Position numbers and translations under genes: made by a program. A stretch of DNA of 64,000 nt. It comes from an uncultured Alphaproteobacteria bacterium (GTDB lineage Bacteria; Pseudomonadota; Alphaproteobacteria; CAAGCB01; CAG-977). The stretch covers positions 180,303 through 244,302 of the forward strand of contig CALDOX010000015.1 of the NCBI GenBank assembly GCA_937912005.1, read 5' to 3'. How positions within the stretch are numbered: the first letter of the stretch is position 1; each line of letters begins with the position of its first letter. The notes under the pieces are model-generated. The model saw only the letters and a list, made by a program, of their open reading frames with translations. It was not told the DNA's origin and did no database searches. Shown here piece after piece: positions 31,271 to 57,261 of this stretch.

Positions 31271-31280
31271 AGAACTGTAA

Positions 31281-32267: not shown

Positions 32268-33079
32268 ATACGTCAACAACGCAAAACTCCTCTGAACAGA
32301 TACTGGCCTTAGCACCCAGAAAGGTTATGCGCCCTCAGGTCCGCAATATGATTGCAGTTGCTTCCGGAAAAGGCGGCGTCGGCAAAACCTGGTTTTCAAT
32401 CACGCTTGCCCATGCTTTCGCGCAAAACGGCTTAAAAACTTTGCTTTTTGACGGAGATCTGGGATTGGCGAATATTGATATTCAGCTGGGATTGATGCCG
32501 TCGCATGATCTGGGCAGCGTCATCGCCGGAAAGATCACGCTCAATCAGGCAATCTGCCACTATGAAGAAGGCGGCTTTGACATTATCGCCGGCCGGTCGG
32601 GCTCAGGCAGTCTGTCCAATGTACCGCTGAGCCGTCTGCAGCTGATCAACGATGATTTGCGTTTGTTGGCCGGCGGATATGACCGCGTGATCGTGGATTT
32701 GGGCGCCGGCGTGGAAAAACCCGTGCGTTTGTTTGCTTCTTCCGCGGCTACGTTATTGATTGTCTGCACGGATGAACCGACTTCTTTAACAGACGCTTAC
32801 GCATTCATCAAAATGGTTTGCATGGAACAGCCGCAGCCCAATATCAACATTGTTGTCAACTCGGCCAATTCCGCCCGGGACGGAGAAAGAACCTACACAA
32901 CGCTGTTGAAAGCCTGTCAGGGATTCCTGCGCATTTCACCGCCTTTGGCCGGCGTGATTCGCAGAGATACGCGCGTTCGGGACGCCATTCGCAATCAAAC
33001 ATCCATCCTGCGCCGCCATCCCAATACGGAAGCCGCCGAAGACGTTTTAACCATCGCCGCCCGCCTGACCAAAGAATAA
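32264..33079 (+). CDS. fleN: MinD/ParA-type flagellar number regulator FlhG/FleN.
   Basis: Deviant Walker A (VASGKGGVGKTWFSITLA). The start overlaps the flhF stop (ATGA). Confidence 0.8.
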   Translation: MNTSTTQNSSEQILALAPRKVMRPQVRNMIAVASGKGGVGKTWFSITLAHAFAQNGLKTLLFDGDLGLANIDIQLGLMPSHDLGSVIAGKITLNQAICHYEEGGFDIIAGRSGSGSLSNVPLSRLQLINDDLRLLAGGYDRVIVDLGAGVEKPVRLFASSAATLLIVCTDEPTSLTDAYAFIKMVCMEQPQPNINIVVNSANSARDGERTYTTLLKACQGFLRISPPLAGVIRRDTRVRDAIRNQTSILRRHPNTEAAEDVLTIAARLTKE

Positions 33080-41202: not shown

Positions 41203-44200
41203 ATGACGCAGGACACAGAAGCCGAATACAACTCGAATGCTTTTTCCGACGATACAAAAATGATGTTTTCCGAACAAAGCGGTTTGCCTGAACAAGTCAA
41301 ACCGCAAAAAACGGATAACAGCTTGATCGCCGCTGCCGCTTTAAGCATTGTCTGGGCCTTTTTGGTCATTGATTATCTGCTGTCCAGCGGTTGGTGGGCA
41401 GCACGTTTTGAAATGACTCCGCCCGAGTTTATGAGCATTATCGCCGGATCTTTGTCTCCGTTTGCTTTTATTTGGATTGCCGCCATTTATTTTTCTTCTC
41501 AGCGCAAATATGTCAAAGAAGCCCGAAAGCTGCGCAGTTATATTTTTGAATTTACGCATCCCAACGCCAAAAACAAATTATACGTCAAGTCCCTGTTGGA
41601 TGATATCCGCCAACAAACATCGGATTTAAACATTGTGTACGGCTTGTTGAAAGAATGCACAAACAACACGCAAAACGCTTTAAAAGACCGATTAAACGAT
41701 CTGAACCGCATTGTCGCCGCCCTTCAGGAAGACATCGAAACATCCGTTCATAAAATAGGGCAGCAAACGGAACTGCTTAACGAATCGTCCGTACAAATCA
41801 ATGAAAGAACAACAGAAGCTGCCGGATTGCTGGAAACGAACCTGACGGCCATTCAAACCGCAGCCGATCAATTTTCCGACCTGACATCTTCGGTTAATTC
41901 CGATTTGCAAACTGCTGTTCATCAACTGACCGAAACCGGCGATACGCTCTCCGACAAAACGCTGCGCATTTCTTCCGAAATTCGGGAACAACAAACATTA
42001 CTGCAAAACACCGCTGAAAACGTACGCGATATTATGACGCGTCAAACAGCCGCCGCAGCCGCGGAATTAAACCGTCAGAGCGCTTTTATTGTCGAAGCGG
42101 GGAATCGCATATTCGAGACAGTCAACCAACAATCACTCCGCGTCAAAGAGGCTGTTGAAAATCATGTAGCCGCCCTGACCGGCAGCGGCGAATCTATTGA
42201 AAATAATGTTTATTCCATTATCTCCGATTTAGAAACACAGATTTCTGTTCTGAACGATACGGCGCAATCCGCTCAAGACAACACGGAAAAAATGCTGTCC
42301 GGATTGGAACGGCGCATCAATATGCTTGAAGACCTTTTCAGCAAACAAATCGATACCGTTTCCGCCAACGACAAACAGCTGCTTGAAACAGCCGGACAAA
42401 TTCAAAACACCTTTAAAGAACAAAATGCGCTGCTGGATCAGGAAGCGGAAAAAATTATCACGCGTTTCAAAACGATTGAAACAACATTGGATACTTATAT
42501 TAATGAAATCAATTCGGCTTCGACAACCGCGATTGATCAAATTTCCGTCGTTTCCGAATCCCTGAGCGGAAAAGCGGGCCAGATTGCCGCCGTCGGCGAA
42601 CAAACCCGGACAGAAATATCGGCTGTTGACGAAGATATTTCAAACAGAGCCGGCCGTTTGACGGAAGCGGTTTCCAGATTGAAAGAACGGGCTGAAACCG
42701 TTTCGGCGGCTTTAACCGAGCATACTCAAAAACTGGCGGAAGCATTGGACGGCACAGAGCCGCGCTTATCCGCCATTCAGGAAAACATTCGGACAAGCCT
42801 TGCGGAACTGAACGACAACATAACCGCGACAGAAGAAAAAACGGAAACGGCTTGCCAGAAATTAATGAAGCAAAACAATGAGTTGTCAGATTTGACCGGT
42901 GCTTTGGTTTCTCAAGCGATTGTAACGGAAACATCTTTGGCTCAGCAACAAAAATACATTTCCAACGCTGCCGCAAAAATAGATGCGGCCAAAACCGATC
43001 TGAAAGAACAATCGACAGATTTGACGGATATTGCCGAATTGCTTGATTCGCGTGCGGCGGAAACGGTTTTGCGTCTGACCCGTTTATTCGAAGACACTCT
43101 GACGCAGTCCGGCAAAATCGTCGATCAGGTCAATACGCTGGATGCCAGCCTTTTAAGTAAAATCAACGCCTTGGATATGTCTTCGCAAAAGACGGTCATC
43201 GCCAACAATACGCTGCATGAAGAATTGGATCGCCATAAAGCGCTTTTGGACGCTTCCGCAAATCGGATGACCACCTACGCGGAAGAAATAAGCGCGGAAA
43301 TTGCCAGACAAACGACTCAAATGGATATTTCTTCCGAACTGATCCAATCCCGCTGTGAAAAAGTCGTTCAGCAAATTGACGAACAGTTCAGAAAATTAAC
43401 GGAAGACGCCCAAATTTTAATTGACAACACACAAAACGCTTCCACCGTGATGACGGATCAGTCCGAAAAACTTGAAACGCTCTTTAACCGGCAAAACTCA
43501 ACATTATCCGAAGTATCGGACAAACTGGCGGAACAAAGTTCTCAGGTTGCAACGATGCTTCGCGAACAATCCGAACAGGCGGATAAAGATTTGGAACGCC
43601 TTGTTTCCAGAATCAATTTAATTGAAGAAGGATTGAACGTTCAAACAAAAGAACTCTCCCACGCTTCCGAAATGACCATATCGCAGCTGGAAACCGTCGG
43701 AACAGCCTTAACGCGCCAAGCGGAAACATTGTCAACGCTCAGCGATGACACGAAGGAAAAAATAGCAGAAATCAGTTCTTCCGTTTCCGACGCCACGACA
43801 AAATTATCGGAAATGGCGCAGATCGCCTGCCAACGCAATTCCGAATCTTTATCCGCTTTGGAAGCCAAACAAAATGACTTTAAGCAATCCGCAGACGATT
43901 TGATGCAGAGAATCCTTGCTTTGCAGGATGAAATATCGCAGCAAACCGACAATTTGCAAAAACAGTCTGTCAAATCGACACAGCAAGCCGTTATGGTACG
44001 CGATTCCATGCAACGGCATATTGTTGATCTGGGAGACGTGGCCAATATCGTGGCAACGCAATCCCGTATGGGGGAAGCGGCGCTAAGCAATCAGATCAAT
44101 TATCTGAAAGAAGCGGCGGAAAACGTTATGACGCACATCCGAAGCATTAATGAAGCGGTTCGTCAGAATACAAACGATTTGTTGACCGCGTCTTCGCGAA

Positions 44201-45369
44201 TCGGTTTTGAATTGGATGCGATGGGTGAAAATTTGCGCCGCAGAAATGAGGAAGCATCCAAATCTGCCGAAGACAGTTTGGCCAGATCGCAGGCCGCCGC
44301 TCAATTTTTGGAAGAAAAAGCTATTCTTTTATCCGATATGACCGAACAGGTAACGAACAATCTGACGACGGCCGGCAATGAATTTTCAGCCCATGCCAAT
44401 ATGATCGAAGCTGCCGGACAAATCGCCAGGGAACAGCTGGAAACGACGGGAGAATCTTTCCTGGTTCAATCTCATCAGCTGACCCGTATTTCCGAAGACG
44501 CACAAAAGGCCGTTAAAAACCTGAGTATTGTTATGCGGGAACGGGCGGTTGATTTCAATAAAACCGCCGAAGAAGCCGGCGCCCGGGTACGCAGTATGAA
44601 TGATACCATCATACAGATCGAAAAAGAATTTGAAGAAATGTCAAACAAAGGCGTTATTCAAATTGACCTGGCCGGCCAGCGTCTGCGCTCCATGCTCAGC
44701 GAAGTGGCCGGAAATTCCGAACGCATTGCCGTTGAAGTGCGTAAATCCGGCGAACAGTTTGTCGATCAGTCGGATTTGTTGTCCGTCGCTGCGGATGACG
44801 CATTAAAACGGCTGCAGAATTTATTGAATATCATGCGTGAAAACGCCAAAGAAATTCAGGAATCCGGCGAAAAGATTTCGGCTCAGTCTCTGAAATTGGG
44901 CGGTGCGTTCAACAGACAGGTTCAGTCTTTGATTTCCGCCTCCCGATCGGCGGAAGAATACATTACCGCATTGGATAAAAGAAAAGAAGAAGCCGATACG
45001 GATCGTTTTATGAAAGAAGCCTCTTTTATTCTGGAAAGGCTGCAGTCTTTGGGTGTTGATATGGCGCGCATTTATACGCCAAATGTTGAAGAAGACCTTT
45101 GGAAACGGTATTATTCCGGCGACAGAAGCGCGTTTATTCGTCATCTGTCCCGCGCAGTCGACAAACAACAAGTACGAAAAATAACGGAAACTTTTACGGA
45201 AAACGCTGAATTCAGAGAATATGTTTCCCGCTATATTGCCGAATTTGACAGTATTTTATCCCGCGCTCAGGAAAATGAACGCTCTGATATTTTAACCGGT
45301 ATTTTGCTGGGCTCCGAAGCGGGACGTTTGTACATGCTTCTATCCAAAATCTTCAATAAGGAAGCTTAA
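41203..45369 (+). CDS. Large two-TM coiled-coil protein with TipN-like topology (candidate polarity/flagellar-placement landmark).
   Basis: 1388 aa. It has a ~40-aa cytoplasmic head and two TM helices (LIAAAALSIVWAFLVIDYLLS; IIAGSLSPFAFIWIAAIYF). About 1290 aa of Glu/Gln/Leu/Thr-rich heptad-like sequence follows, with no recognisable catalytic motifs. Confidence 0.45.
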   Translation: MTQDTEAEYNSNAFSDDTKMMFSEQSGLPEQVKPQKTDNSLIAAAALSIVWAFLVIDYLLSSGWWAARFEMTPPEFMSIIAGSLSPFAFIWIAAIYFSSQRKYVKEARKLRSYIFEFTHPNAKNKLYVKSLLDDIRQQTSDLNIVYGLLKECTNNTQNALKDRLNDLNRIVAALQEDIETSVHKIGQQTELLNESSVQINERTTEAAGLLETNLTAIQTAADQFSDLTSSVNSDLQTAVHQLTETGDTLSDKTLRISSEIREQQTLLQNTAENVRDIMTRQTAAAAAELNRQSAFIVEAGNRIFETVNQQSLRVKEAVENHVAALTGSGESIENNVYSIISDLETQISVLNDTAQSAQDNTEKMLSGLERRINMLEDLFSKQIDTVSANDKQLLETAGQIQNTFKEQNALLDQEAEKIITRFKTIETTLDTYINEINSASTTAIDQISVVSESLSGKAGQIAAVGEQTRTEISAVDEDISNRAGRLTEAVSRLKERAETVSAALTEHTQKLAEALDGTEPRLSAIQENIRTSLAELNDNITATEEKTETACQKLMKQNNELSDLTGALVSQAIVTETSLAQQQKYISNAAAKIDAAKTDLKEQSTDLTDIAELLDSRAAETVLRLTRLFEDTLTQSGKIVDQVNTLDASLLSKINALDMSSQKTVIANNTLHEELDRHKALLDASANRMTTYAEEISAEIARQTTQMDISSELIQSRCEKVVQQIDEQFRKLTEDAQILIDNTQNASTVMTDQSEKLETLFNRQNSTLSEVSDKLAEQSSQVATMLREQSEQADKDLERLVSRINLIEEGLNVQTKELSHASEMTISQLETVGTALTRQAETLSTLSDDTKEKIAEISSSVSDATTKLSEMAQIACQRNSESLSALEAKQNDFKQSADDLMQRILALQDEISQQTDNLQKQSVKSTQQAVMVRDSMQRHIVDLGDVANIVATQSRMGEAALSNQINYLKEAAENVMTHIRSINEAVRQNTNDLLTASSRIGFELDAMGENLRRRNEEASKSAEDSLARSQAAAQFLEEKAILLSDMTEQVTNNLTTAGNEFSAHANMIEAAGQIAREQLETTGESFLVQSHQLTRISEDAQKAVKNLSIVMRERAVDFNKTAEEAGARVRSMNDTIIQIEKEFEEMSNKGVIQIDLAGQRLRSMLSEVAGNSERIAVEVRKSGEQFVDQSDLLSVAADDALKRLQNLLNIMRENAKEIQESGEKISAQSLKLGGAFNRQVQSLISASRSAEEYITALDKRKEEADTDRFMKEASFILERLQSLGVDMARIYTPNVEEDLWKRYYSGDRSAFIRHLSRAVDKQQVRKITETFTENAEFREYVSRYIAEFDSILSRAQENERSDILTGILLGSEAGRLYMLLSKIFNKEA

Positions 45370-45542
45370 AAAAAACATCATTTCCGCGGCCTTCGGCAAA
45401 AAGAAAAGTTGTTTGTTTAATGTGTTTTGTCTTATGATAATGATCGGAAAACGAAAAAACGACAAAAAGACAGAAGCAATACATGCAACGCTTTTTTATC
45501 GGATAAATATATTTTTAAAGCTTATTTAACAGGAGAAATCAA

Positions 45543-45872
45543 ATGCAAATCGAAAAAACGCAGGAAGGTGATATTGTTGTTTTGAAGGTTATCGGCCAGC
45601 TGACATCGTCAACATCGCCTGCGCTGGAAACCGCTGTTAACGACGTTTTGAAAACGGAAAGCAATCTTGTTTTAGATTTTGCCGAATTGGATTTTTTGGC
45701 TTCCTCCGGTTTACGCGTCATTTTATCGACTCAGAAAAGAATAAACGCCAAAAACGGCGCGCTGGTTATCCGCAACGTCAATAAAGTTGTGATGGAAGTG
45801 TTTGAAATGACCGGATTGCGGGATTTTCTCAATGTTTTCCAGGGCAATCGGCAGATTTCCGGTTCAAAATGA
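45543..45872 (+). CDS. STAS-domain anti-sigma-factor antagonist (SpoIIAA/RsbV-like).
   Basis: 109 aa. LDFAELDFLASSGLRVIL is a typical STAS phospho-serine region. Strong RBS (AGGAGA). Confidence 0.8.
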   Translation: MQIEKTQEGDIVVLKVIGQLTSSTSPALETAVNDVLKTESNLVLDFAELDFLASSGLRVILSTQKRINAKNGALVIRNVNKVVMEVFEMTGLRDFLNVFQGNRQISGSK

Positions 45873-45920
45873 CGGAATTGCGGGAAATTATCAATATCCA
45901 CTAACAGATCGGGACACACG

Positions 45921-48218
45921 ATGCTCGAAAAAAAAGCCCCCTCTTTGCACCGCGTTTTTCAAGCGTGGTTGTTGTTGTTTGTCTTTATCGCTTTTTGCAT
46001 CATATTCGGCCTTTCGTATTTCTTTCAAACGCGTTCGGCTCAAAATATGATGATGCGTCAGGCGGTTTTACATTTGGATTATATCGGCAATCAGGTCAAA
46101 ATCATTGAAGACGATTTAAAAGATCTGAAAAAAGAATTAAGCAACGGTTTGGTTGAAAAAGCCCGTGTTTTTGCCATGCTTTTGAAAAATGCGCCGATAT
46201 TGCTGCATAATAAAAACTTTTTGCGTGATTGGAGCAAAGACGCGGGAATAGAAGAAATCAGCATCCTTGGCAAAGACGGCATCGTGATCGAATCTTTTCC
46301 GGAAAAATTCATCGGCACCGATTTTAAAGAATACGATCTGATGCACCCCTATTTACCGTTGATTAACAAGAACAACGGCGTTTATATCGAAGATTTGCGC
46401 ACCAGTTATAACAAAAGCGGCAGCGTTAATTCGTTGGTACAATTTGTCGGCGTATCACGTTTGGATGCTCCCGGCGTCATTCAGATGGGGTATTCGGCCG
46501 AACGATATGCCGAAGCATTAAAAACGGCGTCCGCCGACGTTTTAGCCGATGATTATATTCTGGGAAAAGACGGTTTTATCATTATCTCAAAAGACGATAA
46601 AATTATCAGCGCCGGACATAAAGAGTTAAAAGGAACGACTTTGACGGGTTCCGATTGGAACTTCATCAAAGATATGCCGGAAAATCAGATTTTATTAAAA
46701 AATTCCGTTTTCCTGATGTCACGACAAATTGATTCTTATCGTTTAACCGCCGTCATGCCGAAAAGCGATGTTTACGCCTTCCGCAATACGATTTTATCGT
46801 GGGCGGCTCTCGTTTACATACTTCTGCTGTTCATCGTGTACGTTTTCCTGTCGGCATTATTGGAGCGGGTCGTCGTCCGCGGGATTGAAAAAACAAACAC
46901 GACATTGGAAAAAATTACCGAAGGAAACCTGAACGAAAAAGTCGATGTGCATTCGAATCTGGAATTTGTTTCTCTGTCCAACGGCATTAACACAATGGTT
47001 GACACGTTGAAAGAAGCGATTGCCGAAGCAGCCGCCCGTTTGGATAAGGAATTGGAATTTGCCCGAGAAATTCAACATGCCGCTTTGCCGCGCATATTTC
47101 CGCCGTATCCCAACAAAAACGAATTCGATATTTTTGCATCAATGACGGCGGCAAAAGAAGTCGGAGGCGATTTTTACGATTTCTTTTTATTGGGACACAA
47201 CGGAAGTCATATCGGCATCGTCATTGCCGACGTATCCGGAAAAGGAATTCCGGCTGCTTTGTTTATGATGTCCGCCAAAACGCTAATCAAAAATTTTGCC
47301 GAAACGGGAATGTCGCCCGCAGAAATTTTTTATCATACAAACGAAAAATTATGTGAAAACAACGAAGCCGGCATGTTTGTAACGGCGTTTATGGGGATAT
47401 TGGAAATCGAAACCGGCAAATTCACCTATGTCAATGCGGGACACAATCCTCCGTTGATAAAACGGGCGGACGGCGGTTTTGAACGAATGACGTTAAAACC
47501 TGGATTTATGTTGGGCGCTCTGGATTCTTTTGCGTATCAACAGAGCGAAACATGTCTGGACGGCGGCGACACCATATTTTTATATACCGACGGTGTTACG
47601 GAAGCTCAAAATAAAAACCTGGAATTGTTTGGAGACGATCGTTTGCGCGACGTTTTGAACGAAAACGCTGATAAAGCGCCGAAAGAACTGCTGACAGCCG
47701 TGCATAAAGCGGTTGCCGCGTATGTTGACGGCGCGGAACAATCCGATGATTTAACTATGCTGGCTTTGACATATCATCCGAAAACGCTGACCGTTCCCGC
47801 TGAAATCGAACATCAGGACGACGTTATGAACTTTGTTGACGAGATGTTGAAAAAAGCCTCCGCATCGCCGGAAACCATCGCCAAAACGAATATCGTGTTG
47901 GATGAAATTTTTACCAACATCTGTCATTACGCATATGCGCCGGCCAAAGGAACAGCGACGATTCGTTGTTGTGTCGGCGGAACGCCCGCTTTTATGTCTT
48001 TGGTATTCCGCGACAAAGGAAAGCCGTTTAACCCGTTGAACAAAGCGGATCCTGATATTACGGCAAAAATAGAAGACCGTGAAATCGGCAATCTGGGCAT
48101 TTTTATGGTAAAACAGATCATGGATTCCGTCGAATATGAATACAAAAACGAAGAAAACGTGCTGACCATGGTCAAACGTTTGGAAACCGCTTTGAACGAA
48201 AAACAGCCGATTGATTAA
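45921..48218 (+). CDS. Fused partner-switching protein: membrane sensor, HAMP, PP2C (SpoIIE/RsbU) phosphatase and an RsbW-like GHKL serine kinase, all in one polypeptide.
   Basis: Two TM helices flank a ~250-aa periplasmic domain, followed by a HAMP-like helix. Next comes the PP2C domain (VGGDFYDFF...GIVIADVSGKGIPAALFM...LYTDGVTEA). Last comes a HATPase_c_2 domain (N-box DEIFTNICHYAY, G-box GNLGIFMVKQ). Confidence 0.75.
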   Translation: MLEKKAPSLHRVFQAWLLLFVFIAFCIIFGLSYFFQTRSAQNMMMRQAVLHLDYIGNQVKIIEDDLKDLKKELSNGLVEKARVFAMLLKNAPILLHNKNFLRDWSKDAGIEEISILGKDGIVIESFPEKFIGTDFKEYDLMHPYLPLINKNNGVYIEDLRTSYNKSGSVNSLVQFVGVSRLDAPGVIQMGYSAERYAEALKTASADVLADDYILGKDGFIIISKDDKIISAGHKELKGTTLTGSDWNFIKDMPENQILLKNSVFLMSRQIDSYRLTAVMPKSDVYAFRNTILSWAALVYILLLFIVYVFLSALLERVVVRGIEKTNTTLEKITEGNLNEKVDVHSNLEFVSLSNGINTMVDTLKEAIAEAAARLDKELEFAREIQHAALPRIFPPYPNKNEFDIFASMTAAKEVGGDFYDFFLLGHNGSHIGIVIADVSGKGIPAALFMMSAKTLIKNFAETGMSPAEIFYHTNEKLCENNEAGMFVTAFMGILEIETGKFTYVNAGHNPPLIKRADGGFERMTLKPGFMLGALDSFAYQQSETCLDGGDTIFLYTDGVTEAQNKNLELFGDDRLRDVLNENADKAPKELLTAVHKAVAAYVDGAEQSDDLTMLALTYHPKTLTVPAEIEHQDDVMNFVDEMLKKASASPETIAKTNIVLDEIFTNICHYAYAPAKGTATIRCCVGGTPAFMSLVFRDKGKPFNPLNKADPDITAKIEDREIGNLGIFMVKQIMDSVEYEYKNEENVLTMVKRLETALNEKQPID

Positions 48219-48384
48219 AAGAGTTGCTTTTAAATCCGGCCCGATCCGCGGAATTGAACAAAGTGCGTCATATCCTTTTTGATGCTTGCTTTTTCATAGA
48301 TTTTTTTGTACTCTGTTTCGTGATAAGAATGCTCATGGGAGGTTCTTTGAAAGACAGAGATGTCATGTTGCTTAATGAAAGGAT

Positions 48385-49251
48385 ATGACGATGACAACAG
48401 CTTTTTTACCAGTCGTTCAAAACGGCATACAATCTTATTTGGCGTCAATCAGACGCATTCCCGTTTTATCTGCCGAAGAAGAATATATGCTGGCGAATCG
48501 GTTTCGCAATCATGGCGACTTGTCCGCAGCAAAAAAACTGATTTCGGCACATCTGCGGTTGGCTGCTAAAGTCGCCTTTTCCTATCGGTTCTACGGCCTG
48601 CCTATGGAGGATTTGATTTCCGAAGCCAATATCGGCCTGATGCAGGCGGTCAAACGCTTTGAACCGGATAAAGGCAACAGGCTTTCCACCTATGCGGTTT
48701 GGTGGATTAAAGCCGCCGTCAACGAATTTATTTTAAAATCCTGGTCTTTAGTGCGGATCGGCACAATCGCGGCACAAAAGCGGTTGTTTTACAATCTGCG
48801 CAAAATCAAAGCGAAACTGGGACTTTACGACAATACGTCGTTAGATCAGGAAAGCATCAAAGAAATATCGCAAAACCTGAATGTGCCCGAAGAAGATGTC
48901 GCGGAAATGGATATCCGTTTAAACGGAGACGTTTCTTTAAACACGCCTGTTTATGAGGACGGCTATGCCGAAAAACAGGACTTTTTAAGCGATGACCACA
49001 ACATTGAAGAATCGCTGGCCGAACATCAGGAAAGCACGATGCGCCTGCAGCTGCTGGCGCAGGCGATGGGCAAACTGAACGATCGCGAACGTGCGATTAT
49101 CCGGGCGCGCAAACTGTCCGAAACACCGGATACATTGGATGCTTTAGGCGAACGTCTGGGCATTTCCCGCGAACGCGTGCGTCAAATTGAAAACCGCGCC
49201 GTTGAAAAAATGACACAGTTTATTCAGTCCCGCGCGGGTGCGCTCGTTTAA
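48385..49251 (+). CDS. rpoH: RNA polymerase sigma-32 factor RpoH.
   Basis: 288 aa with sigma-70 regions 2-4. The RpoH box-like segment and an alphaproteobacterial RpoH-style N-terminus (SYLASIRRIPVLSAEEEYMLA). Confidence 0.9.
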   Translation: MTMTTAFLPVVQNGIQSYLASIRRIPVLSAEEEYMLANRFRNHGDLSAAKKLISAHLRLAAKVAFSYRFYGLPMEDLISEANIGLMQAVKRFEPDKGNRLSTYAVWWIKAAVNEFILKSWSLVRIGTIAAQKRLFYNLRKIKAKLGLYDNTSLDQESIKEISQNLNVPEEDVAEMDIRLNGDVSLNTPVYEDGYAEKQDFLSDDHNIEESLAEHQESTMRLQLLAQAMGKLNDRERAIIRARKLSETPDTLDALGERLGISRERVRQIENRAVEKMTQFIQSRAGALV

Positions 49252-49267
49252 ATTTCTTTCGATAAAA

Positions 49268-49295
49268 AAGGCGGCAGAAATGCCGCCTTTTTTTC
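49268..49295. terminator. Bidirectional rho-independent terminator between rpoH and aas.
   Basis: aaggcggca-gaaa-tgccgcctt followed by a T-run. It lies between convergent genes. Confidence 0.6.
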
Positions 49296-49301: not shown

Positions 49302-52300
49302 TTATGCTTCCTGTTCTTCCGCTAATTTAGCCGCAGTAATGTAATCAAACTTGCCCGACCCCAAAACAGGCGGTTCTTTGACATAAATAAACTTGGACGG
49401 AGATCCGAGTTCGTTAAAGCCTTGATCTTTAATATAAGCTCTGATTTCAGACAGATCCGCATCCTGTTTCGTCGTAATCAAAACCAGCTTTTCACCCTTC
49501 TTCGGATCGGGAACGGAAACAAGTCCTTGCACCGCATCGGGATAAAGTTTTGACAACAACTGTTCTATCGCCGTCAAAGAAACCATTTCACCGCCGATCT
49601 TGGCGAAGCGTTTAGCGCGTCCCTGAATAAAAACAAAACCGTCTTTGTCAATCGTGACGATATCGCCCGTATCGTGCCATCCGTCTTTTGGCGGAATCAA
49701 AACACCCGGATTATCGGCTTTCATATAGCCCTGCATCACATTATCTCCGGAAACCAACAGCTTGGCTCCTTCTTTAATACCGGGAACTTCTTCCAATTTA
49801 GCCGCCATTTTTGGCAACAAGCGGCCGACGGAACCTTCACGAATATACATCGGCGTGTTTAAAGAAATAACCGGAGCCGTTTCCGTCGCGCCGTATCCTT
49901 CTAAAATACGGACGCCGAATTTGCGCATCCACAATTCGGACGTGCTCGGCTTCAACTTTTCGGCACCGACAATCGCATAACGCAGCGCAAAGAAATCGTA
50001 GGGGTGAGCCATTGCGCCATACCCCGCGAAGAACGTGTCCGTTCCGCACAAAACCGTCGCGTTTGTTTCATAAACCAATTCCGGCACAATACGATAATGC
50101 AGCGGAGACGGATAAAAGAATGTTCGTATCCCGGATAAAAGCGTTAAAATAGTGCCGACCCCCAAACCGAATGCATGGAACATCGGCAGCGCATTGAAAA
50201 ACACGTCAGCGGAAGTGATCGCAATCACGCTCAGCGCCTGATAACGGTTCGCTTGGAAATTCCGATGAGACAGCAGCACGGCTTTCGGCATACCTTCCGA
50301 TCCGGAAGTAAACATAATCGCCGCCGTATGGTCGGGGCCATTTTTCGGCTTCTTTGAAGTCAGATACGCCAATATTCCTTTCAGTTTATCCTCAAACAAA
50401 ACTTCCGAAGCGAAATCTTCCAGATAAACGACTTTGATGCCGTTTTCCTTTAAAGCTTCTTCCAGTTTTTCCAAATGAGCGTTTTCAATAAATTTCCTTG
50501 ATGTCAGAACGGTTTTCAGCTGCACCGTCTTCACACAGGAAACCACCTGCGCCACGCCGGTGGAAAAGTTCAGCATAGCCGGCACTTTATCAATGCTTTG
50601 CAAAGCGAAAAACGACACAACATTCGCTAAAACGTTCGGCAATAAAAGCCCCAGCCGTTCTTCGTCTTCAAAACAGCGCTCCATAGCTTTGCCCAAGACA
50701 TAGCTTTTCAAAATCAATGTCTTGTATTTAATCGGTTTTCGACTGACATCTTCCGCAATGATATGATTTTTGCCGTTGACCTTCGACGCGTTCAGCAACG
50801 AAACAAACAGATTTTCGTTAATCTTGGAAGATTCGTAAAGCATATCCGTCATCATATCGTAAAGCTGATTGGATATTTCGTGATTACGCTGACGACTTGT
50901 CCAGGACGGATCTATGTCAAACTTTCTGGGCGGCAGAATGTTCATAATGATTTTGGGGAAATAACGCGTTTTCACGCGGTCTTTCAGCAAAGAAAACTTG
51001 GAATACTGCGCCCCGTTGATACGAACGGGCAAAATATTGGCGTTCGCTTTTTCGGCAACCAGCCCCGCCCCTTCATAGACTTTCATCAATGCGCCCGTCA
51101 CGCTGATCCGGCGTTCGGGAAAGATCATCACTTTATTGTTTTTCTTGATCAAATCGACCAAAGAACGGATCGACAGCGGATTGTTCAAATCCAACGGATA
51201 CAGATCAATCATCAGGCTGAACAGTTTTGCAAACCATTTGTTTTCCCATTCCGGCTTAATCACAAAAGTGATTTTTTCAGGCATAAACGCCGCTATCAAC
51301 AAACCGTCCAGCAATGATGTATGATTGGCCACGATTAAAACGCGCTTGCCGGCCGCTTGGAAATTGGGTAATCCTTTGACCGTTACGCGGTAGAAAAATT
51401 CCAAAATCGTTTGAACGATCGACCGCAATAAAGCCGCGGGCAAAACGGAACAGTTATAAACAGACACGATAAAACTGGCAATTCCGGCGAATAAGAACAA
51501 AGCCGCGATACTTAAACCGGCATGACGCGCCGCGATAAAAATCAGCGCCATTAATGCGATCCCTGCCGCATTAATCAAATTGCCGGCGGCAAAAACGGTG
51601 GCTCTGTTCGCATCCGAAGCTTTGCTGCGGATCAATGCCGTTAAAGGGATAACATACATACCGCATGAAAACCCCGATAAAAACAGAAAAACGGAAAAAA
51701 AGATCACGCGCGGACGCAAAACAAATTCCGCAAACGAAGCCGTTTGAACCGGAGCTGCATATTCCGCCGTCAGGAAAAAAAGCATCATAAAGCAAATGCC
51801 CATTCCGATTGTACTGATCGGCACAAAAGTCGTATGCGCTATTCCTTTTAACAGCCGATGACAGTACATCGCTCCGGTGCCGACACCGGCCGCGTATAAG
51901 AGCAGCTGGAAAGCAACGGCAAAATTATCCGCATGAAAGACCTGTTCCGTCAACGGATAAACCTGCATAATCATCAGCAACCCGATGGACCAAAACCATG
52001 TTGTCCCCAATATGCTGCGGAAAATCAAAGGATACTTGCGCACAGTCCGCAAAGTTTTCCATATCCCGATCAGCATATCTTTCGGTGAATTGCTGCTGTT
52101 TTTTTCTTCCTGCTCATCTTTTATCGCATCGGCGGAAGAACGCCATGTCAAAAAGAACCCGATAACGGAAAAAACGATCAAAAAGGCGGCAGCCACTCTG
52201 ACGGGCACCAAAGTTCCGAGCAGCAACGCCGCTACGATACTGATATACGTTGTCTTTTCGATATACGCGTTTCCGGCCGTCAGATCACTTTCTTCCAGCT

Positions 52301-52673
52301 GATCGGGCTGAAAAGCGTAACGTATCGGTCCTAAAAAAGCGGACAGCGCCCCATATAAGAACGGCAGAAGAATCAACAAGCCGATGTTTTTCGTCAATAA
52401 AACGCTTCCGGCCAACAGCATTAAAGCCAATTCCGTTAAATTCAACGACAAGGAAGTTTTGATTCTGTTATATTTTTTCGCCAGTTGGGTTGCTCTGGCA
52501 GAAAATAAAAAGAACGGCAGAATCAACATACCGGCAACAATGTTATACGGATCGTCCGTCTGCTGTGTAATCCGGACGGCTATCATCGTTAACAAAGTAA
52601 TCCGGAACAAATTATTGGTCAGCGCCGAAATGATATGGGAAAATATCTCTGAACTTAACTTAGGCAGCGGCAT
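49302..52673 (-). CDS. aas: Fused lysophospholipid transporter LplT (MFS), 2-acylglycerophosphoethanolamine acyltransferase and acyl-ACP synthetase (Aas).
   Basis: 1123 aa. An N-terminal 12-TM MFS region, a central PlsC-type acyltransferase with the HXXXXD motif (VANHTSLLDG), and a C-terminal AMP-binding domain (TSGSEGMPKAV...GYGATE). Confidence 0.85.
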   Translation of the reverse strand: MPLPKLSSEIFSHIISALTNNLFRITLLTMIAVRITQQTDDPYNIVAGMLILPFFLFSARATQLAKKYNRIKTSLSLNLTELALMLLAGSVLLTKNIGLLILLPFLYGALSAFLGPIRYAFQPDQLEESDLTAGNAYIEKTTYISIVAALLLGTLVPVRVAAAFLIVFSVIGFFLTWRSSADAIKDEQEEKNSSNSPKDMLIGIWKTLRTVRKYPLIFRSILGTTWFWSIGLLMIMQVYPLTEQVFHADNFAVAFQLLLYAAGVGTGAMYCHRLLKGIAHTTFVPISTIGMGICFMMLFFLTAEYAAPVQTASFAEFVLRPRVIFFSVFLFLSGFSCGMYVIPLTALIRSKASDANRATVFAAGNLINAAGIALMALIFIAARHAGLSIAALFLFAGIASFIVSVYNCSVLPAALLRSIVQTILEFFYRVTVKGLPNFQAAGKRVLIVANHTSLLDGLLIAAFMPEKITFVIKPEWENKWFAKLFSLMIDLYPLDLNNPLSIRSLVDLIKKNNKVMIFPERRISVTGALMKVYEGAGLVAEKANANILPVRINGAQYSKFSLLKDRVKTRYFPKIIMNILPPRKFDIDPSWTSRQRNHEISNQLYDMMTDMLYESSKINENLFVSLLNASKVNGKNHIIAEDVSRKPIKYKTLILKSYVLGKAMERCFEDEERLGLLLPNVLANVVSFFALQSIDKVPAMLNFSTGVAQVVSCVKTVQLKTVLTSRKFIENAHLEKLEEALKENGIKVVYLEDFASEVLFEDKLKGILAYLTSKKPKNGPDHTAAIMFTSGSEGMPKAVLLSHRNFQANRYQALSVIAITSADVFFNALPMFHAFGLGVGTILTLLSGIRTFFYPSPLHYRIVPELVYETNATVLCGTDTFFAGYGAMAHPYDFFALRYAIVGAEKLKPSTSELWMRKFGVRILEGYGATETAPVISLNTPMYIREGSVGRLLPKMAAKLEEVPGIKEGAKLLVSGDNVMQGYMKADNPGVLIPPKDGWHDTGDIVTIDKDGFVFIQGRAKRFAKIGGEMVSLTAIEQLLSKLYPDAVQGLVSVPDPKKGEKLVLITTKQDADLSEIRAYIKDQGFNELGSPSKFIYVKEPPVLGSGKFDYITAAKLAEEQEA

Positions 52674-52896
52674 AGAAGCTCCTTATAAAAAATATACTTT
52701 CGTATTAATATTGTCTTTTTGCCCTGCTTTGTCCATAGGATTTTCCAAAAAATCGGTCAGATCAAAGAACCGTTGACATAATGAAGCTTTTTTGATAGAA
52801 AAATTGATCTTTCATTTTAACGGAGGTCTGAAGCGATGCAAAAATAAACAAACATTTCCGATCTTTTTGTTTGTTTTATTTATTGCGGAGGGCTTT

Positions 52897-54477
52897 ATGA
52901 CCGAAAATTTTCTTTCGTTTAACCATGTTTCTTATATTCTGCCGAACGGTGAAAAGCTGTTGTCGGACATTTCTTTTCATATCGGGTTCGATGAAAAAGC
53001 GGCTCTGATCGGCGCGAACGGGTCGGGAAAAACGACGCTGTTCCGTTTGGCCGAAAGGGTTCTTTTTCCGAACAGCGGCTCGATCAACTGCAATGAAACG
53101 CCCGCTTTTCTGCCACAGCATTTCAATCCGAACCAAACCGTTAAAGACGCTTTGGGCGTGGCGCGGATACTGGACGCGCTGGAACGCGTCGAAAACGGCG
53201 ACGGTTCGGCGGAGCTGTTTGATGTGATCGGACAGCGTTGGGATATTCGGTCGGAAACGCAAAAAGCTTTGGCGGATTTTAATTTAAGTCATATTGATTT
53301 AAACGCTTCTTTTGCGAATTTAAGCGGCGGAGAACGTGAAAAAATTCTGCTGTTGAGAATATTTCTTTCTTCTTCAAATATTTTAATGTTTGACGAACCG
53401 ACGAACAATCTGGATGAAGCGGCCAGAAATGCCTTCTATGATTATATTTCTTCAACGCCGAAAACAGTTTTGATCATTTCGCACGACCGGACTTTGTTGG
53501 AGAAAATGACCTGCTTATACGAATTGGCTGACGGAAAAATAAAAAAATACGGAGGAAATTACAGCTTTTATCAAGAAGCCAAAGCGAACGAAAAAGAACG
53601 TTTGGAAGACCAAAAATCCCGATTGGAAAGCCAAACCGCCAAACTATCCGGAGGACAGCGCGCCATTGAAGAATCCACAGGCAAGAAAAACCGCGCGGCC
53701 GAAAAACGCATCGAAAACAAAAAATACACTAAGATGCAAGCCAATTCGATGAAATCCGCCGCGCAGGAATCCAAAGCCAAGAAAATCAAAAAAATCGAGG
53801 AAAAACTGTCGCAGTCTCAAGAGGAATTAACTTCCGTCAAACTGGCTTTAAGGAATGAACAAATCAAAATCCCGATGCCCGAAAAGCCGTTTTTAAAAGA
53901 CAAGGTTCTGGAGCTGTCCGACGTGTCTTTCCGCTTCGGCGACAGAACGCTGTTTTCCGGCCTGAACCTGATTTTGAAAGGCGGGGAACGTCTGCTGATA
54001 AAAGGAGCGAACGGAGCGGGAAAAACGACCTTATTACGTTTGATTCTGGGACAAACGCCACCGACGGCGGGACAGGTTTTCCTATACGGGAAAGCCGCTT
54101 ATCTGTCGCAAAATCTGGAAATGCCGATCGAGGACGGAACCATACTGGACAACATTTTAAAAATGGCGCCCGAAGCTTCCGTCAACGAAGCTTATGCCGC
54201 TGCCGCGAACTTTCTGTTCAGGAACAAAGACGCCTTAAAAACCGTTTCGACGCTCAGCGGCGGGGAAAGGCTGAAAGCCGCTTTAGCCGCCGTTCTGGGA
54301 ACGAAAAATCAACCGGATTTGCTGATTTTGGACGAGCCGACCAATAACCTGGACATCCGTTCAACAGAAATATTGGAAACTGCCTTAAAAGCGTATCGGG
54401 GAGCACTGATTTTGGTGTCCCACGACCAAGTGTTTACGGAAAATATCGGCGGATTTCACATCTTAGAATTATCGTAA
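52897..54477 (+). CDS. ABC-F family ATPase (two tandem ABC domains, no TM domain).
   Basis: Two Walker A motifs (GANGSGKTT; GANGAGKTT) and two LSGGE signature motifs, separated by a Lys/Glu-rich linker. The start was chosen at MTENFLSF after GGAGGG. Confidence 0.8.
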   Translation: MTENFLSFNHVSYILPNGEKLLSDISFHIGFDEKAALIGANGSGKTTLFRLAERVLFPNSGSINCNETPAFLPQHFNPNQTVKDALGVARILDALERVENGDGSAELFDVIGQRWDIRSETQKALADFNLSHIDLNASFANLSGGEREKILLLRIFLSSSNILMFDEPTNNLDEAARNAFYDYISSTPKTVLIISHDRTLLEKMTCLYELADGKIKKYGGNYSFYQEAKANEKERLEDQKSRLESQTAKLSGGQRAIEESTGKKNRAAEKRIENKKYTKMQANSMKSAAQESKAKKIKKIEEKLSQSQEELTSVKLALRNEQIKIPMPEKPFLKDKVLELSDVSFRFGDRTLFSGLNLILKGGERLLIKGANGAGKTTLLRLILGQTPPTAGQVFLYGKAAYLSQNLEMPIEDGTILDNILKMAPEASVNEAYAAAANFLFRNKDALKTVSTLSGGERLKAALAAVLGTKNQPDLLILDEPTNNLDIRSTEILETALKAYRGALILVSHDQVFTENIGGFHILELS

Positions 54478-54635
54478 TGCGACACAGAGTTCACCGGCAA
54501 GCGTCCGTATTGCGGATTGCGTATCCTGCCAAAACGACAAAAACAATAGTGGTTGTTTGCCTCTCTTGTTCTGCTCATCAAAGACCGCGCCACTGGCGCG
54601 GACTTTAAGATGTTGCTGAAATAATCAACCAACAA

Positions 54636-54665
54636 AAGAGCCGCTCGAAAGAGCGGCTTTTTTTA
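54636..54665. terminator. Rho-independent terminator between the convergent ABC-F and zinc-ribbon/DUF805 genes.
   Basis: gagccgctc-gaaa-gagcggctt followed by TTTTTTT. Confidence 0.6.
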
Positions 54666-54667
54666 TG

Positions 54668-55426
54668 TTATCCCTTTGATAAAACGGCTATAATTGCAGA
54701 TATTATCAGTCCGAAAATAAAAATCAAAAAAAAGTCGCTAACGGTAAATTTTTCTGCTTTTTCTTTTTCAACATCTTCTTCACGTTCTTCTGTTTCATCA
54801 TTTGTTTTTCCATAATCTGATGCATCTTCGTTCTGTTCCTTAAATTTTTCTCCTTGTAGAAACAAAATACAGGCTTGATAATAAATCAATACGAGTGCCG
54901 CTATAATGTTAATCCCTTTTTCTCTGATAAATAAACCGCAGATCGGCGGAATCAGCATTACCCACAACGTAACATTTAAGTCTTTCAGTCTTTTTATATA
55001 TGATGACGCCAGCAACCAAATAAAGGCGACGGTTAACGGAACAACAACAAGTTTATAAATTTCAGGAACAGCCGTACACGGAACAACGATCGCAAAAAGC
55101 GCAATATAAACAATCACCCGCGCATAAAAATATTCCAATCGGGAATATGTACCGTCAAAAGAAAAATATTCCTTAAGGTCTTTTGAAAAGAACTTTCGAA
55201 ACATTTTCGGGAAACTGACAATTCCGTTTTCACAGTTCGAATAATCATAGTCGCCGTAATTTTCTTCTTCTGTTGTACCTTCATACGACGTCCATTCCGT
55301 CTCTTTCTCTTTTTCAATATCACCGACAGGCGTTCCGCAATACATACAAAAGTTTGCGCCCTGACGAATTTCTTTTCCGCAATTTGAACAAAACATCTTA
55401 TTTTTCCTCTTTGCTATGATCTTCAA
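54668..55426 (-). CDS. Zinc-ribbon plus DUF805-like integral membrane protein.
   Basis: N-terminal CSNCGKEIRQGANFCMYCG zinc ribbon, then RLEYFYARVIVYIALF, three or four TM helices and an acidic tail. The locus is about 35% GC. Confidence 0.55.
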   Translation of the reverse strand: MKIIAKRKNKMFCSNCGKEIRQGANFCMYCGTPVGDIEKEKETEWTSYEGTTEEENYGDYDYSNCENGIVSFPKMFRKFFSKDLKEYFSFDGTYSRLEYFYARVIVYIALFAIVVPCTAVPEIYKLVVVPLTVAFIWLLASSYIKRLKDLNVTLWVMLIPPICGLFIREKGINIIAALVLIYYQACILFLQGEKFKEQNEDASDYGKTNDETEEREEDVEKEKAEKFTVSDFFLIFIFGLIISAIIAVLSKG

Positions 55427-55997
55427 TCGCCTGATATTTTTCCGCTGCCGGTAATTTGGCGTTGTCTTTATCTTCCGGAGTCAGCGCGGCACATAAAGTT
55501 GTAGCCGCTGTTATTGCGTTTGTTGCCGTTATTCCCGCCTGCATACCGCCTCCCAATGCGGCCAGACCGCTTGTAGTTGCCGCCGCACCTGCCGTTCCCG
55601 TCGCTGACAAAGACGATACGACGCCGGCAGCGGCAACATTACCGATTGCAAATCCGACAGCGGCTTTCCCGATAAATTTCCCGCATTTTTCGGCTGTTTC
55701 AACGGTTTCCGGAGAAACGTCGCAAAACTCGCATACTTTTTTAGCCGCCAATCCGGTAGCGTCACCCGCTAAAACAATCGTTCCGTCAATAGCGGTTTCT
55801 GCAAAATCAGATACGGGAACGGACACGCCTTCTATAGTTGACGATATTTGATCGCTTACCTTTTGAAGCGATTTTTTTGTTTTAGCGTCATCTATAAAAC
55901 TGGCCGCCACATAAAATGCCGCTTTTTGGGCCGCATCAACGGAAACGGATGATAATTTAATGATATTTTTTGCTATTTTTCCGAATGTAAAAGCCAT
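55398..55997 (-). CDS. Hypothetical Gly/Ala/Thr-rich protein with glycine-zipper-like segments.
   Basis: 199 aa. The C-terminal half has GxxxG/AxxxA repeats (GFAIGNVAAAGVVSSLSATGTAGAAATTSGLAALGGGMQAGI). It overlaps the downstream gene by 29 nt. Confidence 0.45.
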   Translation of the reverse strand: MAFTFGKIAKNIIKLSSVSVDAAQKAAFYVAASFIDDAKTKKSLQKVSDQISSTIEGVSVPVSDFAETAIDGTIVLAGDATGLAAKKVCEFCDVSPETVETAEKCGKFIGKAAVGFAIGNVAAAGVVSSLSATGTAGAAATTSGLAALGGGMQAGITATNAITAATTLCAALTPEDKDNAKLPAAEKYQAIEDHSKEEK

Positions 55998-56292
55998 AAT
56001 GTTTCCCCATAGCCGAATAAAAAAAGACCGCCTTTCAGCGGTCGGGGAGTAGAAAAATCAGCTATACTTGATCCTTTTGACCTTTAAAGCCTGTCAATAC
56101 AAATCGGGGCTTCTGAACATACGTCAAAAGCTCCCCGAACCATCAATAAAGACAGTCGGGGATACTTTTCGTGTTTGCCATAAGCAAAACGAATAACGGC
56201 GCATCTCTGCACCGGTATAGCTAAAGAGTTTTTCTAGAACTCCGCACCCGCTAAGGCACTTTATCGACAACCCGATGTTGCCGATACAGAAA

Positions 56293-56322
56293 CAGAATGC
56301 CATTCTGTTGCTTTTTTTTCAA
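56293..56322 (+). terminator. Plus-strand rho-independent terminator in the intergenic region (orphan; possible 3' end of an sRNA).
   Basis: aacagaatg-c-cattctgtt perfect 9-bp stem followed by gcTTTTTTTT. There is no upstream plus-strand ORF. Confidence 0.4.
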
Positions 56323-56373
56323 GAAAGAAAAGACTGAACGGCTGTTTTCCCGTGATCTGTATTATATAAAAAA

Positions 56374-56399
56374 GCTCCCGATTTCTCGGGAGCTTTTTT
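56374..56399. terminator. Rho-independent terminator immediately downstream of ctrA.
   Basis: aaaaagctcccga-ttt-ctcgggagctttttt; A/T runs flank it on both sides. Confidence 0.6.
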
Positions 56400-57086
56400 C
56401 TAACCTTCTTTTTTCGGTTCGCGCAAAACGTAGCCGCGTCCCCAAACGGTTTCGATATAATCGTCCCCGCCGGTCGCTTCGGCGATTTTTTTGCGCAATT
56501 TGCAGATGAACACGTCAATAATCTTCAATTCCGGTTCGTCCATACCATTATACAGATGATTCAGGAATTGTTCCTTGGACAGTGTCGTTCCTTTCGACAG
56601 CGACAAACGTTCCAGAATACCGTATTCGCGGCCGGTCAGATGCAGCGGCTTGCCGTTGACGAACGCTGTTCTGGTATCCAGATTGACTTCGATCGCTCCG
56701 GTACGGATAACCGATTCCGGATGACCTTTCGACCGGCGAACCAAAGCGCGGATACGAGCGACTAATTCCGCCTTGTCAAACGGTTTCGTCAGATAATCGT
56801 CCGCACCGGTGGACAATCCCTTAACCTTTTTATCCGCGCCGGACAAACCGGACAGAATCAAAACAGGCGTGCTGATTTTAGATGCGCGCAGCCGCTTTAA
56901 CACTTCATATCCGTCCATATCCGGCAGCATTAAGTCTAAAATGATGATGTCGTAATCGTACAGCTTGCCGATTTCCAAACCGTCTTCACCCAAAACGGTC
57001 GGATCAACAACCATTCCTTCCTTATGCAGGACGGCTTCGATCGTCTGAGCCATCGCCTTGTCATCTTCAACCAATAAAACGCGCAT
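56400..57086 (-). CDS. ctrA: Cell-cycle response regulator CtrA (OmpR family).
   Basis: 228 aa, near-collinear with Caulobacter Ctr[10 protein letters not shown]..., D51 in [17 protein letters not shown], and a C-terminal [15 protein letters not shown]...[11 protein letters not shown]. Confidence 0.9.
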
Positions 57087-57116
57087 AGAATCACCCTTAT
57101 TCGAGGAAAAATAAAA

Positions 57117-57132
57117 TTAACTTCTTATTAAC
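57117..57132. promoter_or_regulatory. CtrA box (TTAA-N7-TTAAC) in the divergent ctrA/fliI intergenic region.
   Basis: TTAActtcttaTTAAC lies about 30 nt upstream of the ctrA ATG on the opposite strand and about 130 nt upstream of fliI. Confidence 0.55.
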
Positions 57133-57261
57133 TTTATGTTGTATGAATCTCAGATGCAAGCCTATATTTCAATGAAAAATAATTTTTTTTATTTTTTTGA
57201 TAAAAGGGCGACAAAGCATCAAGGAAAGATTATATTATAAATACAGCTTCGGGAATAAAGA

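Follow-up and report, generated by a model that had tools for sequence, protein, structure and literature searches.

The 64,000-nucleotide stretch of DNA analyzed here (the window) comes from an uncultured alphaproteobacterium of the CAG-977 lineage (contig CALDOX010000015.1) and carries, immediately upstream of rpoH, the gene for a STAS protein followed by that of a membrane receptor in which the domains of a serine phosphatase and a serine kinase are fused. These two genes constitute a genuine signalling cassette, with matches to known families that go far beyond chance. The reading that we favor, with a probability of roughly 0.8, is that they form a self-contained partner-switch cassette of a widespread type, whose output is encoded elsewhere and whose position next to rpoH results from an insertion or relocation in one lineage. 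An original prediction, made from the sequence alone, had recognized the module, had described its architecture as uncommon, and had pointed to rpoH, to the flagellar and CtrA genes nearby or to an unlinked sigma factor as its possible output.

Anatomy of the cassette

The three genes are on the forward strand. The open reading frame (ORF) of the STAS protein spans positions 45543-45872 (109 amino acids, aa), exactly as first described, and is followed by the fusion gene at 45921-48218 (765 aa; a membrane receptor with dCache, HAMP, PP2C and RsbW kinase domains) and by rpoH at 48385-49251 (288-aa ORF). ORF positions and domain searches thus confirmed the proposed succession, with 166 bp between the fusion stop codon and rpoH. 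The gap would be 172 bp from the better-spaced ATG at 48391, probably the true start codon, which corresponds to the one called for rpoH in a relative with 80% identity, locus L001.

The small protein was assigned to the STAS family both by Pfam (E=5.8e-20) and by the NCBIfam model TIGR00377 (ant_ant_sig), above its cutoff. Its predicted phospho-acceptor is S54, within the motif LASSGL; this residue is invariant in 8/8 STAS proteins of such cassettes and aligns with the DSSGL/SSGL phospho-serine motif of SpoIIAA (structure 1th8_B), in agreement with the presence of a phosphorylatable serine. In one relative, whose fusion protein is 55% identical to that of the window (L086), two tandem STAS genes are found upstream of the fusion (3756-4372 of that locus), an arrangement that recalls RsbV1/RsbV2 of Chlamydia.

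The receptor consists of a transmembrane (TM) helix, a periplasmic double-Cache sensor, a second TM helix, a HAMP domain, a coiled-coil linker, a PP2C phosphatase and a kinase of the RsbW/SpoIIAB type. Pfam domains, TM segments and invariant motifs support the proposal that one membrane protein would bring together two domains with opposing actions on the STAS protein. TM helix 1 (45960-46025, residues ~14-35) and TM helix 2 (46791-46859, residues ~291-313) show Kyte-Doolittle peaks of 2.7 and 2.8, and are part of helices 9-90 and 281-333 of the structural models, respectively. The double-Cache-like sensor between them (46026-46790, residues ~36-290) comprises a stalk helix and two alpha/beta modules. 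These elements were seen when residues 1-375 were modelled confidently with AlphaFold2 from 75 homologues (mean pLDDT 88): the long stalk helix (9-90) and the two modules are followed by TM helix 2 and the HAMP helices. The top Foldseek matches of the sensor were the dCache ligand-binding domains of Mlp24, Tlp3, PctA, McpH and vpHK1S-Z8, with probability 1.00 and E values from 1e-8 to 1e-6 (best 4e-8), and the periplasmic domain of Chlamydia RsbU (6mab) was also among the matches; TM-scores were modest, since the model includes long helices. The modelled structure is consistent with a double-Cache fold across these matches. At the sequence level, the inter-TM region of ~255 residues gave no Pfam match, dCache_1 being absent from the window protein at E<=0.01 and appearing only faintly, in the relatives P0024 and P0105. 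Inspection of residues ~110-190 of the distal module, by eye only, did not show the R/W/Y/D signature of amino acid-sensing dCache domains.

The HAMP domain (46860-47012, residues 314-364) reached 28.8 bits against a Pfam cutoff of 25, and has the form of helix, loop (334-346) and helix in the models. From its AS2 helix, a signalling helix or alpha-0 linker (47013-47123, residues 365-401) leads to the phosphatase and carries the conserved motif R373..ELxFAxxIQ, six positions of which (R373, E377, L378, A381, I384 and Q385) do not vary among 20 aligned homologues. A second model, covering the cytoplasmic residues 300-765 (pLDDT 90.3, pTM 0.80), shows an uninterrupted helix (347-387) by which HAMP AS2 is prolonged into the PP2C domain, and a junction of ~6 residues between this domain and the kinase. 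In a published model, proposed for phosphatases of the RsbU family with diverse sensors, HAMP included, coiled-coil linkers control PP2C dimers (PMC12143880).

The PP2C phosphatase, of the SpoIIE/RsbU type, occupies residues 402-618 (47124-47774; Pfam SpoIIE at residues 429-618, E=3.6e-55), and the kinase, of the GHKL superfamily, residues 625-752 (47793-48176; Pfam HATPase_c_2 over the same residues, E=1.1e-21; NCBIfam RsbW models, E=1.5e-9). Motif invariance was scored over 20 homologues with 38-82% identity and confirmed with an alignment of 75 sequences. The metal-binding aspartates of the phosphatase (D417, D420, D437, D557, D609 and D610) are invariant, as are the N-box (E662/N666), the G1 box (D698xG700) and the G2 box (G723xL725G726) of the kinase, so that the C-terminal domain keeps its ATP-binding residues. 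Together with the serine of the STAS protein, these aspartates and kinase boxes are the features expected in a system of the RsbU/RsbW/RsbV type. The PP2C domain alone superposes best on that of SiaA (6k4e, TM-score 0.83), RssB and SpoIIE, and the best fold match of PP2C plus kinase is the RsbU+RsbW portion of Rv1364c (3ke6; E=2.8e-23 over 363 columns). A sequence search against the PDB also gave 3ke6 as the best match, covering residues 405-690 of the fusion and thus the junction between both domains.

A trivial explanation for a chain of this kind, an assembly frameshift joining two genes, was ruled out: an identical 765-aa protein was found in independent assemblies (P0001 and P0002), phosphatase and kinase share a single ORF at 56 of the 88 loci surveyed (a few of them redundant), and a crystal structure of a PP2C-RsbW fusion exists, the 3ke6 entry already mentioned. 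The module therefore stood up to each of the three checks made on it, concerning the ATP-binding residues, the phosphorylatable Ser/Thr of the STAS protein and the integrity of the reading frame.

The two genes travel together

A STAS gene is located directly upstream of the fusion gene at every level of identity sampled: 80% (L001), 79% (L091), 77% (L089), 76% (L087), 55% (L086, with its two STAS genes), 50% (L085), 45% (L002) and 40% (L004). Relatives at 76-80% identity have the cassette in four different neighborhoods, which are that of the window in L001, a set of oxidative-stress genes in L091, the position after rho in L089, and the interval between genes for HtpG and an iron-containing alcohol dehydrogenase and one for acetaldehyde dehydrogenase in L087. 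DNA homology between relocated cassettes is limited to ~45508-48200, that is, to both genes. At the 56 loci with a fused receptor, a directly adjacent STAS gene on the same strand was present in 35 cases, 20 upstream and 15 downstream. In all-versus-all clustering of the ORFs of the 88 loci, no third partner emerged: the only other families to recur were generic ABC ATPases and two-component proteins (response regulators or histidine kinases). STAS and fusion genes alone travel together, as a self-contained two-gene unit.

Two further observations were made around the cassette. In the window, an imperfect 12-nt inverted repeat, TCATTTCCGCGG / CCGCGGAATTGA, is located at 45378-45389 and 48246-48257, a short way within the two ends of the 2.9-kb indel described below. 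It was considered as the terminal inverted repeats of a mobile element, and is treated here as a chance occurrence: it is absent from the cassettes of 7/7 relatives and its right arm is deleted in L001. On the other hand, in two settings that otherwise differ, the immediate upstream neighbor of the STAS gene is rubrerythrin-like (4683-5216 in L002; 4894-5448 in L091, and also in L092); in L091/L092 this neighbor ends an oxidative-stress run that includes MarR, a flavodoxin-like protein, a rubredoxin-containing protein with a metallo-beta-lactamase fold and a glutathione peroxidase. Its presence might reflect a redox-related function, or a place that the cassette occupied ancestrally.

Position of the cassette next to rpoH

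The downstream gene encodes RpoH, with 333.3 bits for TIGR02392 (rpoH_proteo; cutoff 323.1) and 343 bits for NF005143 (cutoff 241). The neighborhood of L001 is colinear with the window, in the order isoleucyl-tRNA synthetase (IleRS), a coiled-coil protein of 1384 aa, STAS, fusion, rpoH and Aas; between both loci RpoH is 96% identical and the receptor 80%. In a jackhmmer search seeded with RpoH, L001 was also the only one of the 88 loci to have a gene of the sigma-70 family within 5 kb. In L093, whose RpoH is 93% identical, an aminotransferase gene, the gene for IleRS and a gene for a coiled-coil protein of 1388 aa are followed directly by rpoH, with no cassette; it is likewise absent upstream of rpoH in L094 (RpoH 94% identical) and L095 (85%). 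When the empty site of L093 was compared with the window by BLASTN, homology ended at position 45370 and resumed at 48271, delimiting a 2.9-kb indel (45371-48270) that consists of the upstream intergenic region, the STAS and fusion genes and ~50 nt of 3' tail; no other gene is contained in it.

Outside this segment, rpoH has a sigma-70-like promoter at 48286-48314 (TTGCTT-N17-TACTCT), proposed on the basis of consensus and conservation. The TTGCTT box, the 17-nt spacer, TAyTCT and a leader of ~75 nt are kept at 5/5 rpoH loci regardless of the gene upstream. The conserved region begins at ~48271-48285 (alignment A6), and the interval 48268-48391 is more conserved than the adjacent coding DNA, with 95% identity in L001 and 83-88% in L093, L094 and L095; the ~36 nt that follow the fusion stop codon are absent in L001. 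A strong terminator-like site is present 3' of rpoH, at 49264-49293. From this pattern we judge that rpoH is probably an independent transcription unit with its own promoter and leader. The conserved promoter and leader, along with the empty site, point to a cassette that was inserted or relocated beside an already autonomous rpoH in one lineage. The functional link with rpoH contemplated in the original prediction is thus not borne out: adjacency exists only in the window lineage and the syntenic L001, the cassettes with 79, 77 and 76% identity are elsewhere, and three rpoH loci lack it. We judge the adjacency to be incidental, with no indication of control of sigma-32.

The rpoH leader itself was also explored. 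A perfect 12-13-nt complement between 48266-48279 and 48374-48390 could have formed an RNA thermometer or a helix sequestering the Shine-Dalgarno sequence and the start codon. This candidate was rejected as comparatively unsupported, given a z-score of only -0.66 for folding of the whole leader, the location of the 5' arm upstream of the conserved promoter, and changes in that arm in L095 and L094 without compensation. No Rfam family reached its gathering threshold in a scan of the whole window.

A widespread architecture

The combination of domains in the receptor cannot be regarded as uncommon, as had been thought initially. In a survey with one representative genome per species, relatives of the fusion were found in at least 594 genomes, and full-length matches of ~750 aa extend over at least six phyla, with examples in Elusimicrobium, Oscillospiraceae, Lachnospiraceae, Ruminococcus, Atopobiaceae, Victivallaceae and others; carriers come almost entirely from gut, rumen or faecal samples. 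Among the best 120 of at least 8000 matches in a protein search, nearly all have ~750 aa, cover 95-100% of the query and contain SpoIIE and HATPase_c_2. They appear in databases as 'SpoIIE family protein phosphatase', from metagenome-assembled genomes of Alphaproteobacteria, Firmicutes, Lentisphaeria and Anaerovoracaceae, and one of them (P0049) bears the JGI label 'serine phosphatase RsbU / anti-sigma regulatory factor (Ser/Thr protein kinase)'.

The kinase domain used alone as query in an exhaustive search matched 4575 representative clusters at E<=1e-10, and among the best 150 matches stand-alone proteins of the size of RsbW (~135-145 aa) are interleaved with the C-termini of proteins of 530-960 aa, which suggests that fused and split forms interconvert. 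In this superfamily, input modules are routinely exchanged. A sub-family of 930-990 aa was also observed, with an extra N-terminal 5TMR-LYT domain (PF07694) before the sensor-PP2C-kinase body (P0082, P0089, P0093, P0097 and P0100-P0116; P0089 represents 376 sequences).

Comparison with known partner-switching systems

Literature searches retrieved no paper describing a dCache-HAMP-PP2C-RsbW protein. The receptor joins two known designs, namely the membrane sensor-HAMP-PP2C phosphatase of SiaA and chlamydial RsbU, and the PP2C-kinase fusion of HsbR, CrsR and Rv1364c.

SypE of Vibrio fischeri is a cytoplasmic protein in which the order is RsbW kinase, receiver (REC) domain and PP2C. The order in the window receptor is different (sensor, HAMP, PP2C and kinase, with two TM segments), as stated in the original prediction, which nonetheless overlooked that HsbR, CrsR and Rv1364c have the PP2C-then-kinase order. 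SypE resembles the window receptor in having kinase and PP2C in one protein with a STAS partner: it shows serine kinase and PP2C activity on Ser56 of SypA, whose target is not a sigma factor (PMC8256260).

In HsbR of Pseudomonas aeruginosa and CrsR of Shewanella oneidensis, PP2C is followed by an RsbW-type kinase/anti-sigma domain and both act on an adjacent STAS protein; the two phosphorylation states of the latter can signal, and HsbA acts through FlgM and HsbD (PMC6482189). The domain order and the adjacent STAS gene are those of the window cassette. The input of these proteins, however, is a cytoplasmic receiver fed by a phosphorelay, instead of a membrane dCache-HAMP module, and their third domain binds RpoS, while the window receptor has no linked sigma partner. 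No Response_reg match was obtained for the fusion with Pfam or NCBIfam, and for lack of a REC domain it does not, judged by described architecture, belong to the HsbR/CrsR family in a strict sense. Rv1364c/MursiF of Mycobacterium tuberculosis shares the PP2C+RsbW core, with an identity of only 22%. It is a cytoplasmic protein with an N-terminal PAS domain and a C-terminal fused STAS domain, whereas the window has a separate STAS gene and a receptor with a periplasmic sensor and no PAS.

SiaA of P. aeruginosa has two TM segments, HAMP and PP2C, and sets with SiaB the phosphorylation state of SiaC, which acts on the diguanylate cyclase SiaD (PMC7647112). The topology is that of the window receptor without its kinase, and the small antagonist-like protein is itself the output. 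However, the SiaB kinase is a separate protein, SiaC is phosphorylated on threonine, and the Sia operon includes the diguanylate cyclase gene, in contrast to the window cassette, which has no output gene. The SiaA model NF038263 was the top NCBIfam match of the fusion (residues 287-617, E=2e-18), but its 66.3 bits are far below the cutoff of 700, a score that indicates a related architecture rather than an orthologue of SiaA. RsbU of Chlamydia trachomatis is also a membrane sensor phosphatase, its periplasmic domain being a distant fold match (12% identity), and the partner-switch genes of this organism (RsbU-RsbW-RsbV1/V2) are not linked to that of the target sigma; RsbW is a separate protein there, unlike in the window fusion.

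Among alphaproteobacteria, an Rsb-type partner switch has been studied only in Rhodobacter capsulatus: RbaV/RbaW/RbaY, a CtrA-regulated system with no linked sigma gene, for which RbaV was proposed as the output; two-hybrid assays of RbaW with RpoD and RpoHI were negative and no sigma partner was found (PMC3999984). The Rba components are three separate proteins, with a phosphatase that has REC input and no membrane sensor, as opposed to the fused, membrane-bound receptor of the window.

Proposed mechanism and output

From the anatomy described above and the published mechanism of RsbU-family phosphatases, we envisage the receptor as a dimeric inner membrane protein, the periplasmic double-Cache domain of which would bind a small molecule. 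The signal would be relayed through TM helix 2, HAMP and the continuous coiled-coil alpha-0 helix, and would switch the PP2C domain on or off. The C-terminal RsbW-type kinase, as its motifs suggest, would phosphorylate Ser54 of the STAS protein and the PP2C domain would remove the phosphate, the signal becoming a ratio between phosphorylated and unphosphorylated STAS. The output would be encoded outside the cassette. By analogy with SypA, HsbA, SiaC and RbaV, it would most likely consist in the action of the unphosphorylated STAS protein on an unlinked target, a possibility for which we see the odds as about even and which we favor because no sigma gene is linked: the single gene detected within 5 kb among the 88 loci is an rpoH, and the empty site of L093 gives no support to RpoH as the cognate sigma. 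The main alternative, which we hold only tentatively, is that an unlinked sigma factor, bound by the kinase domain, would be set free by the STAS protein, in the manner of CrsR/HsbR and RpoS or of chlamydial RsbW and sigma66.

A role in flagellar or CtrA-linked lifestyle control, comparable to that of HsbR-HsbA via FlgM/FliA and a diguanylate cyclase (PMC6482189) or to the CtrA-regulated Rba system of Rhodobacter (PMC3999984), seems unlikely. The genes for CtrA (56400-57086) and FliI (57262-58611) lie 8-9 kb downstream of the cassette and a flagellar cluster is located at 17-33 kb of the window, and in one relative (L002, 45%) the cassette adjoins the genes for FliI, a CtrA-like regulator, ABC-F and Aas, the same set in a rearranged order and without rpoH. 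This relative gives slight weight to the suggestion that the circuitry next door is the output, but no flagellar family recurs across the 88 loci, no flagellar or CtrA genes are found within 6 kb in the relatives with 79, 77, 76, 55, 50 and 40% identity, and there is no FlgM, FliA or GGDEF gene among the annotated ORFs of the window.

It is very improbable that the kinase domain serves as anti-sigma for the adjacent RpoH, so that a ligand would gate the heat-shock regulon through STAS-driven release of sigma-32. The fusion gene and rpoH share a strand and are separated by 166 bp that contain no terminator-like site, the 80%-identity locus also has them side by side, and RpoHI of R. capsulatus has been singled out as the sigma that most resembles SigB (PMC3999984). 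However, RbaW, the sole alphaproteobacterial RsbW tested, did not bind RpoHI (PMC3999984), and the adjacency is missing from the relatives with 79, 77, 76, 55, 50, 45 and 40% identity and from 87 of the 88 loci. There are also three loci with RpoH proteins 85-94% identical and no cassette, one of them an exact empty site; rpoH has a conserved promoter and leader of its own, and between the window and L001 RpoH has remained at 96% identity and the receptor at only 80%. In addition, carriers of the cassette are mostly Bacillota, Actinomycetota and members of other phyla, which to our knowledge have no sigma-32 orthologue. A co-option restricted to the lineage of the window, where the membrane-anchored RsbW-type domain would sequester sigma-32 and/or read-through would drive rpoH, appears just as doubtful; if true, a periplasmic ligand would gate the heat-shock regulon, and an RsbW-type anti-sigma would for the first time be assigned to RpoH.

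Equally remote is a catalytically dead kinase domain, or one acting as a docking module, which would make the receptor a sensor phosphatase and leave phosphorylation of the STAS protein to another kinase: Rv1364c is said, in the title of Sachdeva et al. 2008 (cited in PMC12344097), to have lost its kinase activity, and the stand-alone RsbW-like proteins that are the nearest relatives of the domain imply that trans-acting kinases exist in such organisms, but invariance of the N-box, the G1 DxG and the G2 GxxG over 20-75 homologues is unexpected for a decayed ATP site, and no second RsbW-like gene is present in the window or beside the cassettes of its relatives.

Some aspects weigh against the self-contained cassette with unlinked output that we propose. 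Its activities, ligand and output are inferred; in particular, kinase and phosphatase activity on the STAS protein are predicted from intact motifs, and the case of Rv1364c, reportedly without kinase activity, means that motif conservation is no proof of activity. At the sensitivity used, 13 of the 56 fused loci have no STAS gene within 5 kb, and the RpoH-seeded search that returned one sigma gene among 88 loci could miss extracytoplasmic function (ECF) sigma factors. With respect to rpoH, no terminator-like site separates this gene from the fusion, so that read-through may occur; nor is their adjacency of very recent origin, since it is shared by the window and L001, whose receptors have diverged to 80% identity.

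Genomic surroundings

The gene that precedes the cassette (41203-45369, forward strand) encodes the 1388-aa protein whose counterparts, of 1384-1388 aa, are conserved beside IleRS in L001, L093 and L095. It has hydrophobic segments at residues ~47-54 and ~85-89, the rest being long and coiled-coil-like, and it matched no Pfam or NCBIfam family above cutoff, with weak SMC, ZorA and apolipophorin-like matches only.

Further upstream, the flagellar cluster (17415-33079, forward strand) includes genes for FliK-like, FlgD, FlgE, FliF, FliG, FliH-like, FliN, FlhA and FlhF proteins, a MinD/FlhG-like ATPase and a sigma-54 activator with a degenerate receiver (FlbD-like). FlgE is unusually long (1081 aa, 20225-23470). 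Directly after the cluster, an ORF of 642 aa (33090-35018, forward strand) gave no Pfam or NCBIfam match, and in the 353-aa protein encoded next (35009-36070, forward strand) an N-terminal J-domain, at residues ~4-77, is the only recognizable part.

Downstream of rpoH, the block formed by Aas (a fusion of major facilitator superfamily, acyltransferase and AMP ligase domains), ABC-F, CtrA and FliI occupies 49302-58611 of the window, 8335-14316 of L002 and 3886-9577 of L094, in rearranged form. Its orientation with respect to the cassette is reversed in L002, and the L094 version is without the ABC-F gene and two small ORFs (54668-55997 in the window). Two tandem HSP20 small heat-shock genes (62339-63369, forward strand), 13 kb downstream of rpoH, also follow the Aas-CtrA-FliI block in L094, and are candidates for ordinary members of the sigma-32 regulon.

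Concluding remarks

On present evidence, the picture of sigma-32 regulation in Alphaproteobacteria remains unchanged by the location of the cassette described here. What these data bring to light is that one-receptor partner switches with their STAS protein form a large, mobile and experimentally uncharacterized family, concentrated in gut and rumen bacteria and distributed over many phyla. With only two genes, they are an attractive minimal system for the study of partner-switch signalling without a linked sigma factor.

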